Below, piece by piece: positions 1-4,907 of a DNA stretch of 4,907 bases (its first letter is position 1; each line of letters opens with the position of its first letter). Origin of the DNA: a virus (Duplodnaviria > Heunggongvirae > Uroviricota > Caudoviricetes); the IMG/VR virus record IMGVR_UViG_2675903606_000017, positions 1 through 4,907 of that record; one strand, written 5' to 3'. Under the pieces are notes generated by a model. It was not told the origin of the DNA. It did no database searches and worked only from the letters and a program-made list of their open reading frames with translations. The translations under genes were made by a program, and so were the position numbers.

Positions 1-342
1 CTGCATTACCGGCTGCACTTTCTGCCGTCTTTCTTGACAATTCAGCTTCTGCTGCACTTTGTGATGACTCACTGGCTTTTTGAGCGGCCGCAGAAGCCGA
101 GGACGAGGACGCATCCTCTGACTTCTTTGCTGAGGCTGCACTTTCTGCCGCCTGCCGGGCTGACTCCGATGCCTCCCCTGCTGAAGTGTCAGCATTTGCC
201 GCGCTCGCTTCCGCCTGACTGACTGATATGCCGGCATTCCTCGCGGACGTCTCTGCTTCTCCGGCATTCTTCTTCGCCTCCTCTGCGTGACGCGCCACCT
301 CTTCCACCATCAGTTCAAAACGACGCAGTGCCTCCGGACGGA
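1..342 (-). pseudogene. Internal fragment of a lambdoid-type side tail fibre protein (Stf-like); the ORF continues past the left edge of the window and its 5' part is missing, apparently cut off by the Mu-like insertion at about 343
   Basis: Hand translation of the minus strand from 358 down to 1 gives one open frame with no stop: DSPGYIRPEALRRFELMVEEVARHAEEAKKNAGEAETSARNAGISVSQAEASAANADTSAGEASESARQAAESAASAKKSEDASSSSASAAAQKASESSQSAAEAELSRKTAESAAGNA. The RPEALRRFELMVEEVAR block followed by an Ala/Ser/Glu/Lys-rich repetitive shaft matches, from memory, the conserved N-terminal region of phage lambda Stf-type side tail fibres (lambda has ...DDARPEVLRRLELMVEEVARNA...). The conserved block is preceded in frame by unrelated residues and then a stop about 19 codons upstream (around 398-400). 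The only in-frame ATG (309-311) falls inside the conserved block (the M of ELMVEE). The ORF is absent from the six-frame track, presumably because it has no stop inside the window. Confidence 0.65.
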
Positions 343-357
343 TGTAACCAGGTGAAT

Positions 358-371
358 CATTTGATACCGAC
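358..371 (+). repeat. Putative terminal transposase-binding site L1 (CATTTGATACCGAC)
   Basis: TTTGATACCGAC at 360-371 is repeated exactly at 455-466 and as TTTGATACTGC at 507-517. Extended, L1 (358-371, CATTTGATACCGAC) matches the third copy (505-518, CATTTGATACTGCT) at 12 of 14 positions. The three copies start about 16, 111 and 163 bp from the proposed end, similar to the L1/L2/L3 arrangement I recall for Mu attL. Confidence 0.45.
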
Positions 372-452
372 AAGGGTTTTAGTGAAAGGAGGTGAAATCA
401 CCTGTAAGATGCTGAAATAAAACAGGTGATGTATACTTCGGACGGAAAACTC

Positions 453-466
453 TTTTTGATACCGAC
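453..466 (+). repeat. Putative terminal transposase-binding site L2 (TTTTTGATACCGAC)
   Basis: Exact 12-bp repeat of the L1 core (TTTGATACCGAC, 455-466), same orientation. Confidence 0.45.
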
Positions 467-504
467 TGCTCAACAAATAGTCAAAAGATCAAAAAACGGC
501 GACA

Positions 505-518
505 CATTTGATACTGCT
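505..518 (+). repeat. Putative terminal transposase-binding site L3 (CATTTGATACTGCT)
   Basis: 12 of 14 match to the L1 copy at 358-371, same orientation, about 40 bp downstream of L2. Confidence 0.4.
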
Positions 519-698
519 AATTTACCCTTAAAATCTTCTTCAAAACATCTTCAAACTGCCAAAATGCTCACATAATCGATCTAACTATAATCAGTATGAT
601 AATCATCATGAATTACTATTCAATAGCGTGATTATCTTGGGATGAGTCATATGATCTCTATATGTATTTACAGCACCACCTCATGATAGCGATGGCGC

Positions 699-1310
699 TT
701 AACCAACAACATTTTTCTTTACTGTCACTGCCCCTGATTCCTGGGTGGCGTTATTGCTCGAGTTGTACTTCTCAATAACGCGCAAAATCTCTTTGTCTGT
801 TTCTTCACTTCCCGCCATTCCTATCTTTATTGCATTTTTTAGTACGGGACGTAATGGCAAGGCATCAATGATGCTTTCTACCGCATCCTGGCTGATTGTA
901 GATGTATTCATTGCTGCCAGCCTGACAAGGTTGTTAGTACCTTCTCGCCTGATGAATGTAAGGATTAATTGCTTCTCTTGGGGGCTTAGAGAGCTAAGCG
1001 CCTGATCAATACCCGAACCCGAATCGCAATTTTTTTCGATTTTTCCGCATTCATCTTCGTTCTTGCCTGTGGCCAACCATTCGAGTGAACAATTACAGGC
1101 TTTAGCTATTAAGGCCAGTTTATCCAAAGGAGGGAAGTTTTTCCCCTTCCTGTAATTTCTTACTGTGGCTTCAGATAGTCCACAAAGGGTCGCCAGTTCG
1201 ACGTTTGTCATGTTTCCCATAGCCATAGCTAAGCGTTCTGAAAATCGGTTTATTCCTTCCATATCAATAAACCGTTCCGCACTGGATACGGTTTTTTCTG
1301 CCTTATCCAT
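699..1310 (-). CDS. Prophage repressor with an XRE/Cro-CI-type helix-turn-helix (functional analogue of Mu c)
   Basis: 203-aa ORF divergent from ner-A-B, in the position of Mu c. Residues about 30-85 (MTNVELATLCGLSEATVRNYRKGKNFPPLDKLALIAKACNCSLEWLATG) look like a typical XRE-family HTH. Good Shine-Dalgarno on the minus strand (AGGGGG, 4 nt, ATG at 1310). No obvious LexA-like Ser/Lys autocleavage motif. The C-terminal tail (...ESGAVTVKKNVVG) loosely resembles the Mu repressor C-terminus as I recall it. Confidence 0.75.
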   Translation of the reverse strand: MDKAEKTVSSAERFIDMEGINRFSERLAMAMGNMTNVELATLCGLSEATVRNYRKGKNFPPLDKLALIAKACNCSLEWLATGKNEDECGKIEKNCDSGSGIDQALSSLSPQEKQLILTFIRREGTNNLVRLAAMNTSTISQDAVESIIDALPLRPVLKNAIKIGMAGSEETDKEILRVIEKYNSSNNATQESGAVTVKKNVVG

Positions 1311-1466
1311 ATAACCCCCTATAAAACAAAGAAATTATCGGCATCGCATTTAATTTCGATATGCTCGCAAAAAACTGTTGATATCGAATTATTTTGCGAT
1401 TATGATTTACCTAAATCGATAACCGGTTTTGATTATCGGTTCAGGTAAACATGAGAGGATCACACA
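1311..1466. promoter_or_regulatory. Divergent operator/promoter region between repressor and ner; likely also the transposition enhancer equivalent
   Basis: AT-rich 156-bp intergenic region between divergent genes. The pentamer TATCG or its complement CGATA occurs five times (1336-1340, 1357-1361, 1382-1386, 1417-1421, 1434-1438). These include an inverted repeat CGATAA(1417-1422)-N10-TTATCG(1433-1438) centred on the palindrome ACCGGT (1422-1427). The region lies about 970-1120 bp from the proposed left end, comparable to the Mu operator/enhancer position. Confidence 0.5.
1378..1406 (+). promoter_or_regulatory. Candidate early promoter (Pe-like) for ner-A-B: -35 TTGATA (1378-1383), 17-bp spacer, -10 TATGAT (1401-1406)
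   Basis: Near-consensus sigma70 hexamers with the optimal 17-bp spacer, about 60 bp upstream of the ner start. Predicted transcription start near 1413, just upstream of the CGATAA-N10-TTATCG inverted repeat. Confidence 0.5.
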
Positions 1467-1733
1467 ATGAGGGTATCCAGACAAGCATCGAATAATTTGT
1501 TTGTTCGAGAGGGGTGTGACTGGTCTGCTAAAGCGGTATATGCAGCCCTTGAAAACAAAGGCACAGACCTCCCTGAACTGGAAAGGGAGTTAGGATTAAA
1601 AAGCGGATCAATGCGCAATGTGTTTTACCGCCAGTGCCGTAAATACGAAGCCGCCATCGCCGAAAAAATAGGGGTTGAACCTGCTGTAATCTGGCCCAGC
1701 AGATACCAGGTGGACGCCAGAGAAGTGGCTTGA
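1467..1733 (+). CDS. ner: Ner-like DNA-binding protein (Mu Ner / Nlp family)
   Basis: 88-aa ORF immediately upstream of the transposase gene. Residues DW...LS...PEVIWPSRYQ match Mu Ner as recalled (DWHRADVIAGL...ETKPEVIWPSRYQ); this window has DWSAKAVYAAL...GVEPAVIWPSRYQ. Shine-Dalgarno GAGAGGA about 8 nt upstream of the ATG at 1467. The N-terminus is about 10 residues longer than Mu Ner, so the true start could differ. Confidence 0.85.
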   Translation: MRVSRQASNNLFVREGCDWSAKAVYAALENKGTDLPELERELGLKSGSMRNVFYRQCRKYEAAIAEKIGVEPAVIWPSRYQVDAREVA

Positions 1734-1743
1734 TGGGGGATGT

Positions 1744-3834
1744 ATGTGGGTAACAGCAAAAGAATGTGTTGGTCTTCCTGATTTACCAATGATGGAACAT
1801 AACATTCGCCATCGACTCACAAAAGCAGCTGCGGGAAATGCAGCCATGTTACGCAAACGTAAGGGGACAAAAGCAATCGAATTTAATATCGATTGTTTGC
1901 CTTCTGGCGCGCAACAAGTATTGCGTGAACGTTATGCCCTTCAACTGATGACGCAAAAAGCTGATGAATCACCGGCTCCGGTGGTGACAAAGGCCAGACG
2001 CTCATCTGCCGTGGTTGATGCGGTGGAGGCATATCGCGGATCACCACAACTGATGCTCGAACGCCTCAATGCCCTGACTGAAAACCAGCGCCAGGTGGCT
2101 GATGCACGAATCGCGATCGTCAGCGAAGTTCTGAAAGTCGCGCAACAACCTGGTTTCAGCTGTGCGAAGGCTATCCGGTTTATCGTTGACAACCTGGCAC
2201 GTTCGCAACTGGACGAGCGCATTGTGGCAATGGTTGAGACGGCGAACGCCAAAAAGGGAAACAGCCGTGCGTTGAGTGAAATCACGCTGAAACGCTGGAT
2301 TGCAGCCTTTAACAAGGCGCAGAACGCCGCTGAACGCCTGCTTTTGCTGGCACCTGGTAAGCGCCAGGAAATAAAAGCCGAAGATATTAACTGGCTGCCC
2401 GAATTTCTGGCGCAGTATCGCCAGTCAAACGGCCGACCAATGACCGAGGCTTACGAGGATTTTGTCGCTGAATGGCAGCACCGGCACGCTGATGAGCCTT
2501 ATATGCTCGATATCATGCCGTCTTATGACACCATTCGCCGCGCAATGAAGAAACTGCCGGAAGTGGTGAAACAAAAAGGCCGGGTGACCGGCAGTGAATA
2601 CCGCCAGCTTGAGGGATTCACGCGCCGCGACTGGTCCAGAATGCCGGTGAATTATGTCTGGATTGGTGACGGTCACGGCATGAAGCTGAAATGCGCACAC
2701 CCGGTTCACGGTCGGCCATTTGCACCGGAAGTGACCTTTGTTATCGACGGTGGCACGCGCTTTGTGGTGGGCTGGAGCCTTGACCTGGCTGAAAATGTTT
2801 TCGCCGTAGCCGGTGCCATACAGCACGGCATTCGCCATCACGGCAAACCGTTTCTGTATTACTCGGATAACGGCTCCGGGGAAACCGCCGACATCCTGGA
2901 TAAGGAGGTTGTGGGGATACTGCCGCGACTGGGGATTAATCACCCGACCGGGATTGCCGGTAATCCGCAGGGACGAGGCATTATCGAACGGCTTAACCGC
3001 ACATTACCGATGCGCATAGCCCGTAAATACCGCACCTATTTCGGGAAAGGTGCAGATCGCGAGACGTTACGCAAAACCAACCGCGATTTACGCTCGGCAT
3101 TTACTGCCCTGCAACAGGGCAAACGGCTGAACGCCCGGCAGCAGTCAGCGATGCGTGATTTACCGTCCTGGTCTGAACTGATTGATGCCATTCGTGACGG
3201 TGTTGAGTGGTACAACAACCGGCCGCACGATGAATTACCGGTGAAGCCGAACGGCAAGCATTACAGCCCGGCGGAGTTCAGAAAAAAACGCCTGGCGGAA
3301 GAGGACACGGAAATTGAATGGCTGTCCGATGTTGAGCTGCGGGATATGTTCCGGCCGATGGTGGAACGCCCTGTAAGACGCTGTGAAATACGCTGGCTGA
3401 ATAATATTTACTACGCGCCCGAGCTGCGTGACGAGCATGGTCGTAAGGTGCTTATCAGCTATGACATTCATGATGCCGAACGAATTACCGTACGTCGCCT
3501 GGATGGCAGCGTGATTTGCGAGGCGGTATGGGACGGCAATAAACGCGAAGCCTTCCCGATCAGCGCGGAATACCACAAACAGCAGCAGCGCCTTAAAGGC
3601 ATGCGTAAACGCGCAGAGGAAAAAATCCGTGATGCCGAGGATGAGATTGTCAACGTGCTGGAGCACAAGCCACAGGAGCCGTGGCTGGAAAATATATACC
3701 GCCCTGTGGGTAATACGGTGATCGTTCAGCAACCGGTCGCTGACGATGAACCTGATGAAGAATACGAGCGTAATTTCCAGCGGGGATTGCAGCTGCTTGA
3801 AGCGAAATTAAAAGAAAATGACCCTCTGGCCTGA
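1744..3834 (+). CDS. A: MuA-like DDE transposase
   Basis: 696-aa ORF. The N-terminus (WVTAKECVGLPDLP...KGTKAIEFNIDCLP) parallels the Mu A enhancer-binding domain (WVSPKECANLPGLP...KGGKAIEYNANSLP). Candidate catalytic DDE residues sit in VWIGDGHG, YYSDNGSG and GIIERLNRTL. The C-terminus (RPVGNT...DEEYERNFQRGLQLLE) resembles the Mu A C-terminal MuB/ClpX-interaction region. Shine-Dalgarno GGGGGA upstream; the start lies 10 nt after the ner stop. Confidence 0.95.
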   Translation: MWVTAKECVGLPDLPMMEHNIRHRLTKAAAGNAAMLRKRKGTKAIEFNIDCLPSGAQQVLRERYALQLMTQKADESPAPVVTKARRSSAVVDAVEAYRGSPQLMLERLNALTENQRQVADARIAIVSEVLKVAQQPGFSCAKAIRFIVDNLARSQLDERIVAMVETANAKKGNSRALSEITLKRWIAAFNKAQNAAERLLLLAPGKRQEIKAEDINWLPEFLAQYRQSNGRPMTEAYEDFVAEWQHRHADEPYMLDIMPSYDTIRRAMKKLPEVVKQKGRVTGSEYRQLEGFTRRDWSRMPVNYVWIGDGHGMKLKCAHPVHGRPFAPEVTFVIDGGTRFVVGWSLDLAENVFAVAGAIQHGIRHHGKPFLYYSDNGSGETADILDKEVVGILPRLGINHPTGIAGNPQGRGIIERLNRTLPMRIARKYRTYFGKGADRETLRKTNRDLRSAFTALQQGKRLNARQQSAMRDLPSWSELIDAIRDGVEWYNNRPHDELPVKPNGKHYSPAEFRKKRLAEEDTEIEWLSDVELRDMFRPMVERPVRRCEIRWLNNIYYAPELRDEHGRKVLISYDIHDAERITVRRLDGSVICEAVWDGNKREAFPISAEYHKQQQRLKGMRKRAEEKIRDAEDEIVNVLEHKPQEPWLENIYRPVGNTVIVQQPVADDEPDEEYERNFQRGLQLLEAKLKENDPLA

Positions 3835-3841
3835 AATAAAA

Positions 3842-3871
3842 AAATAACCCGAGCGGCGACTCAGGTTATTT
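3842..3871 (+). terminator. Stem-loop between the A and B genes; possible partial terminator, attenuator or RNA-stability element
   Basis: AAATAACCCGAG (3842-3853) pairs with CTCAGGTTATTT (3860-3871) at 11 of 12 positions (one C/A mismatch), with loop CGGCGA. An A-rich run lies 5' and the 3' arm is T-rich, followed by GATT. The GC core is short (CCCGAG/CTCAGG), so termination would be weak at best. Confidence 0.35.
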
Positions 3872-3909
3872 GATTAAACAAAGGAACTACACAAACGCGA
3901 GGTAATAAT

Positions 3910-4827
3910 ATGACCGATATAAACGATGTAATCAAGACCATTGATGAACTTATTGATGGCGGCGTGCTGACGCAGTATGCCATCGCCAGAGAGGCGGGAA
4001 TTTCCGACGGCACATTATCGGCTTTCCGCAAGGGGAAATATAAAGGCGATAACGCCGCTGTGGCTGCTTCCCTGCGCTCCTGGTATGAGAACTGGAATAA
4101 ACAAAGCGCACTGCCGGAACCGCCGCAGTTTGTGGAAACTCAGACAGTCCAGGAGCTGCGCGCACTGTTTCAGGCGGTTCGCCTGATGGGCTGTATTAAC
4201 GTTATTGTGGGCGTACCGGGTGTGGGTAAAACGGCCACTGCCCGTAATTACTGCCAGGAGCAACCAAACACCTGGATGATCACCCTGTCACCCGCGCACT
4301 CCAGCGTCACGGAGTGTCTGCTGGAGCTGGCCGATGCGCTGGGGATTGATTACACCCGCGCGAACAAAGGGGCATTATCCCGCGCCATCCGCCGTCGCCT
4401 GATGGGAACGCGTGGACTGGTGATTGTGGATGAGGCGGATCATCTTGGTATTGACGGTCTGGAGCAACTCCGGGCAATTCAGGACGCCACGGGGATCGGG
4501 ATGGTGCTTATTGGTAACCCGCGCGGATTGTTTAAAGGTGGACGCCGCGCCTTTGATGATTTATCGCGCCTGTTCAGCCGTCTTGCCCGTACAAAACAAC
4601 TTCGCAAGGCCAAAAAGGCGGATGTGCTGGCCATTGCCAGGGCATGGGGTATCAGTGGTGAGGCCGAGCTGGCTGTCATGCAGGCTATCGCTGAAAAGCC
4701 GGGAGCGTTACGCGTTCTGACACATACGCTTAACCAGGCGTGGCTCACCGCCAGCGGTGAAGGCGCGGCGCTGACAGAAAAACATATTAATGCGGCCTTT
4801 GGTAATGCTGCCAACTTACTGATTTAG
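3910..4827 (+). CDS. B: MuB-like AAA+ ATPase (transposition target-DNA activator)
   Basis: 305-aa ORF directly downstream of the transposase gene. Walker A GVPGVGKT and Walker B LVIVDEADHL are present. Strong similarity to Mu B as recalled (PEPPQFVETQTV here versus PEPPRFVETQTV; KPGALRVL versus KPGALRIL). Shine-Dalgarno GAGGT about 8 nt upstream of the ATG. Confidence 0.93.
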   Translation: MTDINDVIKTIDELIDGGVLTQYAIAREAGISDGTLSAFRKGKYKGDNAAVAASLRSWYENWNKQSALPEPPQFVETQTVQELRALFQAVRLMGCINVIVGVPGVGKTATARNYCQEQPNTWMITLSPAHSSVTECLLELADALGIDYTRANKGALSRAIRRRLMGTRGLVIVDEADHLGIDGLEQLRAIQDATGIGMVLIGNPRGLFKGGRRAFDDLSRLFSRLARTKQLRKAKKADVLAIARAWGISGEAELAVMQAIAEKPGALRVLTHTLNQAWLTASGEGAALTEKHINAAFGNAANLLI

Positions 4828-4907
4828 TGTATGATGGTGATTTTAAGGTGCTTGCGTGGCTTCCATTTCCATCAGATGTCCTTCCTGCTCCGCTACTGAA
4901 GGCGTGG

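Follow-up and report, generated by a model that had tools for sequence, protein, structure and literature searches.

The window examined here, a 4,907-nucleotide stretch of viral DNA (positions 1 to 4,907 of IMG/VR record IMGVR_UViG_2675903606_000017), is the left end of a Mu-like transposable prophage in Escherichia coli, which measures 38.4 kb when complete. Positions 1311–1466 are exactly the intergenic region between a repressor gene and ner, and thus separate the repressor gene from the divergent early operon, in which a ner-like gene is followed by those for a MuA-type transposase (A) and a MuB-type ATPase (B). We read this region as a divergent immunity and early-control region with two classes of palindromic site, namely putative operators of the repressor (class R) and a putative operator of the Ner protein (class N), and assign to this reading, which we derive from sequence comparisons, a probability of about 0.65. 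The original prediction had likewise proposed a lytic/lysogenic switch here, built from five TATCG/CGATA half-sites at 1336 (plus strand), 1357 (minus), 1382 (plus), 1417 (minus) and 1434 (plus), and all five pentamers are indeed present, with every coordinate exact. Its interpretation was right in outline, as to the divergent repressor/ner control region, the promoter and the inverted repeat, but wrong in detail, because there are two classes of site rather than five copies of one half-site. The features of the locus are as follows, with the strand given where one applies.

699–1310, minus strand: repressor gene, an open reading frame (ORF) of 203 amino acids encoding an N-terminal Cro/CI-type helix-turn-helix (HTH)
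1023–1040: distal class R palindrome ATCGCA-ATTTTT-TTCGAT (ATCGCAATTTTTTTCGAT), a perfect match inside the repressor gene
1336–1340, plus strand: first TATCG copy, unconserved (TTATG, TTATT or TTTGC in Salmonella relatives)
1343–1360: upstream class R palindrome ATCGCA-TTTAAT-TTCGAT (repeat I1), which holds the CGAT of copy 1357
1365–1369, plus strand: lone class R half-site TCGCA, in relatives CCGMA within AATAAACCGMA (repeat I4, TCGCAAAA / TTTTGCGA)
1378–1406, plus strand: predicted early promoter (Pe), with −35 TTGATA at 1378–1383, a 17-nt spacer and −10 TATGAT at 1401–1406
1383–1400: class R palindrome ATCGAA-TTATTT-TGCGAT in the Pe spacer, which holds the ATCG of copy 1382
1407–1422: class N left unit TTACC-TAAATC-GATAA, which abuts the −10, covers the predicted +1 and includes copy 1417
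1433–1448: class N right unit TTATC-GGTTCA-GGTAA, which holds copy 1434
1453–1459, plus strand: Shine–Dalgarno sequence of ner, GAGAGGA, nearly invariant in the family
1467–1733, plus strand: ner-like gene, 88 amino acids, the first of the early operon (Pfam HTH_35, PF13693, 1.7e-20)
1744–3834, plus strand: gene for the MuA-type transposase (Pfam domain match)
1876–1893: class R-like palindrome ATCGAA-TTTAAT-ATCGAT with one mismatch, in the transposase gene, ~465 bp past the predicted start
3910–4827, plus strand: gene for the MuB-type ATPase (Pfam domain match)

Our comparisons draw on a set of ~30 related prophages. These were found via repressor homologues (74–47% identity) in Salmonella, Morganella and Providencia, where they adjoin ner and MuA genes, and further via E. 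coli genomes that match in part, searches of genomes and viral contigs with Ner (in the genome-contig scan, a single Ner protein query returned 0 loci and an alignment query 13 loci), and deposited phages.

The promoter call of the original prediction holds: both hexamers lie where it had placed them, TTGATA-17-TATGAT is the only sigma-70-like match on the plus strand of 300–1800 (10/12), and relatives have promoter-like hexamers at unchanged positions, with sequences that drift (TTGAAA, TTTACA, TTGATC or TTGACA for the −35, and TATGAT, TATCGT or TAGGAT for the −10). Early transcription is predicted, from the placement of these hexamers, to start near 1413. A search for a leftward promoter of the repressor gene found none that is convincing, the only conserved candidate scoring 8/12 (−35 TTTAGG, 1415 to 1410; −10 AATAAT, 1393 to 1388), and the conservation of this candidate may merely reflect that of the operators it overlaps.

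Class R palindromes and the repressor gene

The repressor matches the Pfam families Phage_CI_repr (PF07022, 1.6e-9) and HTH_3 (PF01381, 4.4e-9), as well as PHROG 3037, annotated as “transcriptional repressor” (6.8e-59). No S24 domain (LexA-like autocleavage) was detected at Pfam E ≤ 0.01, the C-terminal domain being uncharacterised, and a search by sequence found no relative of the repressor with a solved structure.

Class R sites share an 18-bp palindromic pattern, ATCGMA-N6-TKCGAT, in which the N6 is A/T-rich. The window holds three perfect matches and one with a single mismatch, and the complete prophage holds five with at most one mismatch, four of which fall within 870 bp at its left end. 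The copy at 1383–1400 exactly fills the 17-bp spacer of the early promoter, and is conserved in Salmonella as RTCGRATTATTTTGCGAT. Elements whose repressors have other recognition helices carry a different palindrome in the Pe spacer (for example TCGGATTATTGTTCGA, TCGTACTTTAGTGCGA, TCGTGTTTTTGTGCGA or GCGTGTTTTTATACGC), and in most of them the element’s own palindrome word recurs 30–40 bp upstream, inside the repressor ORF, or both; a second palindrome of the element’s own type, 30–40 bp upstream of the promoter copy, is present in 7 of the 18 relatives scanned. When recognition helices are tabulated against Pe-spacer palindromes, the class R words are thus seen to co-vary with the repressor across the relatives.

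The distal copy at 1023–1040 encodes the peptide IEKNCD in the inter-domain linker of the repressor, and a palindrome is found at the same place in relatives. At this site 78% of the nucleotides are invariant, compared to 11–33% in the flanking variable linker; the codons GAA, AAT and TGC are fixed, including their synonymous positions, and the first codon always ends in C while the amino acid it specifies varies. Other lineages have their own operator word inside the repressor ORF, where it encodes quite different peptides. This island of conservation in the linker, together with the differing peptides elsewhere, leads us to read class R as the putative operators of the CI/XRE-type repressor, of which 1383–1400 would be the main operator and 1023–1040 a distal, intragenic one. 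We also suggest, tentatively and with well short of even confidence, that this repressor family uses three operators, one in the Pe spacer, one 30–40 bp upstream and one intragenic, several hundred bp away, the third of which loops the DNA. The palindrome at 1876–1893 is a weaker candidate for a distal operator, possible at best: it encodes part of a conserved protein motif of the transposase, GTKAIEFNIDCLP, such that coding constraint explains it at least equally well, and it may be coincidental.

The class N dyad and Ner

The class N element, TTACC-TAAATC-GATAA-CCGGTTTTGA-TTATC-GGTTCA-GGTAA, spans 42 bp at 1407–1448, begins at the base after the −10 hexamer, and has four half-sites arranged about an N10 centre. 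The inverted repeat CGATAA-N10-TTATCG (1417–1422 and 1433–1438, containing copies 1417 and 1434), to which the original prediction had drawn attention, is real, promoter-proximal and strongly conserved; it is the inner part of this four-half-site element and the core of repeat I2 (1406–1422 / 1433–1449), the 17-nt arms of which are 88% complementary across a 10-nt gap.

We aligned 21 non-redundant relatives by anchoring them on the class N right unit only. The left inner pentamer, GATAA or GATTA, is found at a fixed offset in 21/21 of these sequences, and the information content is highest on the four pentamers, with the N6 and N10 spacers drifting. In three lineages the left unit reads TAATC-N6-GATTA, which is a symmetric change within one unit. 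These relatives come from Escherichia, Salmonella, Edwardsiella, Morganella, Providencia, Klebsiella, Xenorhabdus, Photorhabdus and a Yersinia phage, and the four class N pentamers keep a fixed spacing throughout them.

The Ner protein matches two structures in the PDB, Mu Ner (1NER, 8e-8) and EnrR (7F9H, 6.5e-7), and its recognition helix, G-S/T-M-R-N-V-F-Y-R, is invariant in the close set of 12 relatives. Where the Ner helix is clearly different, other words stand at the place of the dyad, namely TTAGT/GCTAA in Mu and TTACC/GATAT in a Stx2c-associated Mu-like phage. The E. coli CI5 element (L001) matches the window only from 1368 on: its repressor gene (58% identity) and the upstream half of its control region are different, while its ner is identical to that of the window and its dyad differs by one base. 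There is a mosaic junction in the control region, at ~1368–1400 of the window and 2447–2597 of L001, and we conclude from these alignments that the region comprises two exchangeable modules, one consisting of the repressor gene and the upstream half, and the other of ner, the dyad and the transposase gene. For both classes, the sites, their conservation and their linkage to one gene are direct observations.

A sequence-agnostic scan for the geometry 5-6-5-10-5-6-5, in which internal symmetry is scored, finds 1407–1448 in the window (16/20, P = 0.001–0.008) and, in phage Mu, TTAGT-AAGCTA-GCTAA-GTTTTTACAC-TTAGT-TAAATT-GCTAA at Mu coordinates 1023–1064 (18/20, P = 0.0005–0.004). The Mu element begins 1 nt after the −10 hexamer of the Mu early promoter (TATCTT, 1016–1021), and holds two 12-mers that we take to be the footprinted Ner boxes. 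As with the Mu Ner operator, the first early gene here encodes a Ner-family (HTH_35) protein and precedes the transposase genes A and B, and the dyad lies 0–1 nt past the predicted −10, would span the start, and has a T-rich centre in addition to the same geometry. The half-site cores are also related (GCTAA/TTAGT in Mu, GATAA/TTATC here). Unlike in Mu, where the recognition helix is TLANALER, that of the present Ner is SMRNVFYR, the proteins being ~37% identical. The Mu Ner box ANPyTAPuCTAAGT reaches at best 9/11, at 1405–1416, and this match is not conserved beyond the E. coli/Salmonella clade. With this value and a best match of 8/11 for the Mu repressor sites, the sites of the window are distinct from those of Mu, as had been proposed. 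We note that 1405–1416, ATTTACCTAAAT, is 10/12 identical to a Mu Ner box on the other strand (ATTTAACTAAGT); as the likeness of this segment to the Mu box is limited to the E. coli/Salmonella clade, it is probably coincidental.

EnrR, a Ner-family xenogeneic regulator of Edwardsiella whose complex with DNA has been solved, binds as two monomers to the AT-rich palindrome AATAAATNATTTATT (PMC9023278). It shares the Ner-family fold with the present protein, and its half-site resembles GATAAAC, but it differs in being a global nucleoid-associated regulator and in the spacing of its half-sites (PMC9023278). The conserved pentamers, the conserved Ner helix, the match in geometry with Mu and the binding of a palindrome by EnrR are, taken together, why we read class N as the operator to which Ner would bind.

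Several points weigh against this reading. Linkage leaves Ner and MuA inseparable, since the mosaic junction has both of them to one side. The operators of the group A and group B repressors are similar, and thus the CI5 mosaic by itself says little against a repressor that binds the dyad; it is the comparisons with Photorhabdus, L002 and L003 that carry this argument. The outer pentamers co-vary across the dyad (TTACC/GGTAA vs TTATC/GATAA, with 8 C-G and 10 T-A), which is a hairpin-like pattern. The geometry scan did not recover the pattern in Vibrio cholerae, Cardiobacteriaceae, Motilimonas or D108/SfMu. As here, D108/SfMu have a long inverted repeat between the early promoter and ner, but theirs is a single 11-8-11 dyad, CCGTGAGCTAC-N8-GTAGCTCACGG, with unrelated words, which is presumably the dyad described for D108 Ner. 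The comparison also leans on the Ner operators of Mu and D108 as reportedly described by Tolias & DuBow 1986 and in related work. Finally, the assignment of proteins to sites and the position of the early start are both deduced from sequence alone.

In V. cholerae ATCC 14035 (L027), a dyad of the form GTGTTACA-N5-GCGCAA-N10-TTGCGC-N5-TGTAACAC lies past the −10, upstream of the ner homologue. Its inner halves resemble the promoter-spacer word of the same element, TGCGCA, a hint that its sites may be divided up differently.

Alternative assignments of the sites

The dyad could be bound by a protein other than Ner. This might be the transposase, through its N-terminal enhancer-binding domain, in which case the dyad would belong to a transpositional enhancer, or else a protein of the host, with Fur and IHF as candidates. 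The transposase does have a weak match to the Mu DNA-binding domain (PF02316, residues 6–143), the dyad is linked to MuA as closely as to ner, its GATAAT-like words recall Fur boxes, and these words are constant across host genera. In Mu, however, the enhancer shares its place with the repressor operators and is not known to do so with the Ner operator, and it is the Ner operator, rather than the enhancer, that the dyad fits in position and geometry. Moreover, elements with strongly different Ner helices (L053 and Mu) have different words at the place of the dyad, and on balance we consider a binder other than Ner to be unlikely.

The dyad at 1406–1449 could also act as a nucleic-acid hairpin rather than as a protein operator, whether as a 5′ stem-loop of the early transcript, as a leftward leader, or as a cruciform. 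The complementarity of its 17-nt arms would allow this, with a calculated −14.5 to −21.6 kcal/mol for the full dyad in the E. coli and Salmonella copies; over the 21 sequences, pairs form in 82% of cells, and columns 10/45 show covariation. Such an RNA stem is, however, difficult to reconcile with an outer arm that lies upstream of the predicted +1, and the fold of an RNA beginning at the predicted start has no advantage over those of shuffled sequences (−7.9 kcal/mol, z = +0.72). Most copies from E. coli and Salmonella have spacers that are complementary at 5–6/6 (the window itself at 4/6), but in other lineages the value is 1–4/6; there is no wobble bias on the plus strand (11 G-T vs 21 A-C); and in L016, L025 and L045 the left unit is itself palindromic (TAATC/GATTA), which breaks its complementarity with the right inner half. 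A search of Rfam gave no match at E ≤ 1. The overall dyad symmetry of class N does also fit a hairpin, yet the Mu and D108 Ner operators, as we presume them to be, show the same symmetry, and a hairpin in place of a protein operator is in our view decidedly unlikely.

All five TATCG/CGATA copies could, as in the original prediction, be half-sites of a single regulator, either the repressor or Ner, arranged around the promoter. The word is certainly enriched: the whole window has 17 copies where 8.1 would be expected, shuffling the 156 bp with dinucleotides preserved yields 0.80 copies on average and P(≥5) = 3.5e-4, and 1311–1466 is the only place in the 38.4-kb prophage with at least five copies per 156-bp window (0.14% of windows). 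In addition, ATTATCGG is repeated exactly at 1334 and 1432. However, the word was picked after looking, and 38% of shuffles of this AT-rich 156 bp have some pentamer family with at least five copies, such that the count is only moderately above chance. The claimed excess therefore stands for the specific word and becomes unremarkable once word choice is corrected for (P = 0.38). The count is suggestive and short of decisive, and the statistically strong signal is that of the longer palindromes in which the pentamers are contained.

Conservation separates the five copies further. When the window is aligned with variants from E. coli and with four relatives from Salmonella, copies 1417 and 1434 alone show no variation, and it is only at these two positions that the motif recurs in homologues. 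At 1336, 1357 and 1382 the pentamer is lost while TCGA or TCGR is retained, and the Salmonella relatives, which have lost all three upstream copies, have TCGMA...TKCGA as the conserved upstream word. Within the set of near-identical E. coli copies, intergenic polymorphism is confined to positions 1340, 1341, 1342, 1361, 1362 and 1376; these changes destroy copies 1336 (G1340) and 1357 (A1361) and flank the palindrome 1343–1360, with none inside it. Judging from its variability, copy 1336 probably does not serve as a half-site for binding, and copies 1357 and 1382 simply form the outer ends of the two 18-bp class R palindromes. The start-to-start spacings of the five copies (21, 25, 35 and 17 bp) suit no one dimer geometry, and in mosaics the part of the region upstream assorts independently of the part downstream. 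With two copies conserved, two polymorphic in E. coli, and two classes of site, the five do not form one half-site family, and a single regulator acting on all of them is very improbable. TATCG/CGATA is over-represented because both unrelated classes of site happen to contain CGAT/ATCG.

A swapped assignment, with the repressor on the TTATC/GATAA dyad and Ner on the TCGMA palindromes, would suit the 5-6-5 geometry of both classes, which any HTH dimer could bind, but is very improbable, given that the words of class R follow the repressor whereas the Ner helix does not vary, that class N words are constant across very different repressors, and that the promoter core is where one would expect a maintenance repressor, with Ner just downstream, as in Mu.

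A scan for known motifs gave the following matches, none of which we retained. The best Fur box (a 19-bp, 9-1-9 dyad resembling GATAATGATAATCATTATC) scores 12/19 at 1398–1416, across the −10 and the left outer half-site, while inside the dyad the best is 11/19 with a spacing that is off by one (GATAA-N10-TTATC, against N9). An IHF site scores 8/9 at 1371 on the minus strand, which is outside the dyad and not conserved in relatives. The best DnaA box is 6/8, the best LexA box 5/7, and the best match to the Mu repressor consensus 8/11.

The proposed switch and its setting

With class R assigned to the repressor and class N to Ner, the region would operate as follows. In the lysogen, repressor dimers would occupy 1383–1400 and 1343–1360, with 1023–1040 as a possible looping partner, and the early promoter would be blocked: because 1383–1400 fills the Pe spacer, a repressor dimer bound there would keep RNA polymerase away and so preserve lysogeny. 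The other class R copies may serve cooperativity, looping or autoregulation. Upon derepression, transcription from ~1413 would allow Ner to accumulate and to occupy 1407–1448 across the start, where it would lower early transcription, and possibly also that of the repressor gene, as Ner does in Mu. The leftward promoter candidate would be hit by both proteins. The intragenic site appears to be kept at the DNA level despite the lineage-specific peptides it encodes, and its occupancy would loop the DNA and thus tighten repression of the transposition operon; it could also be a roadblock that caps repressor synthesis, and the class R cluster might double as a transpositional enhancer. In this respect, the intragenic operator is a candidate for long-range repression in a transposable phage.

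This arrangement can be compared with two well-known switches. As in the CI/Cro operator arrays of phage lambda, a repressor of the XRE/CI type is divergent from the lytic operon, and there are at least two similar palindromic sites, one of them in the core of the lytic promoter. Unlike lambda CI, the repressor has no detected S24 domain, its operators are 18 bp long with an A/T-rich N6, and a conserved copy lies within the repressor coding sequence. The Mu c operators O1–O3 are likewise ~1 kb from the left end, in the gap between the repressor gene and ner, with several operators overlapping Pe; the present repressor, however, is no homologue of Mu c, having an XRE HTH in place of the MuA-like winged helix, and the Mu consensus CTTTTPyNPuTAAPu is matched at 8/11 at best. 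The closest repressors of deposited phages are the “CI-like repressors” of D3112-like Pseudomonas transposable phages, which are 31–44% identical over the HTH. Among deposited phages, the closest is Klebsiella phage Kp4866-3, which is unannotated and has a Ner that is 55% identical.

The region is an ordinary, though previously undescribed, phage switch, and the known logic of such switches is unchanged by it. What it provides is concrete candidate sequences for the operators of Mu-like prophages whose immunity type is uncharacterised, and which transpose in pathogenic E. coli and have relatives across Enterobacterales. It also provides a four-half-site geometry common to the Mu Ner operator and to distant relatives with different words, and comparing this geometry helps to read the poorly understood DNA recognition of the Ner family (Ner, Nlp/SfsB, EnrR and CdeR).

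As regards the wider setting, bases 1 to ~342 of the window match the tail-fibre genes of lambdoid/Stx phages at 97.8%, and the left end of the Mu-like element starts at ~343 (TGTAACC...). By these matches, the Mu-like prophage is inserted within a tail-fibre gene of a lambdoid or Stx-type prophage, that is, a phage within a phage. Of 5426 complete E. coli genomes, 34 contain near-identical DNA from ~343 on, adjoining varied host genes (glrR, bglJ, cho, flgK and others), as would be expected of a transposing element. We considered and dropped Sp18 of O157 Sakai as a name for the element, since none of the 36 E. coli genomes matching the region is that of Sakai.

Three further observations concern other parts of the element. 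Within less than 180 bp of the left end, TTTGATAC(CGAC) occurs in three direct copies (360–371, 455–466 and 508–519), which are probably transposase end-binding sites equivalent to L1–L3. The 75-nt gap between the transposase and MuB genes contains a 17-nt inverted repeat at 3837–3876, 82% complementary with a 6-nt loop and no T-run after it, which may be an intercistronic stem-loop. Lastly, in the complete prophage of E. coli JE86-ST02, RefSeq annotates a “tRNA-OTHER” feature within the head-gene region (L054, 22660–22739).

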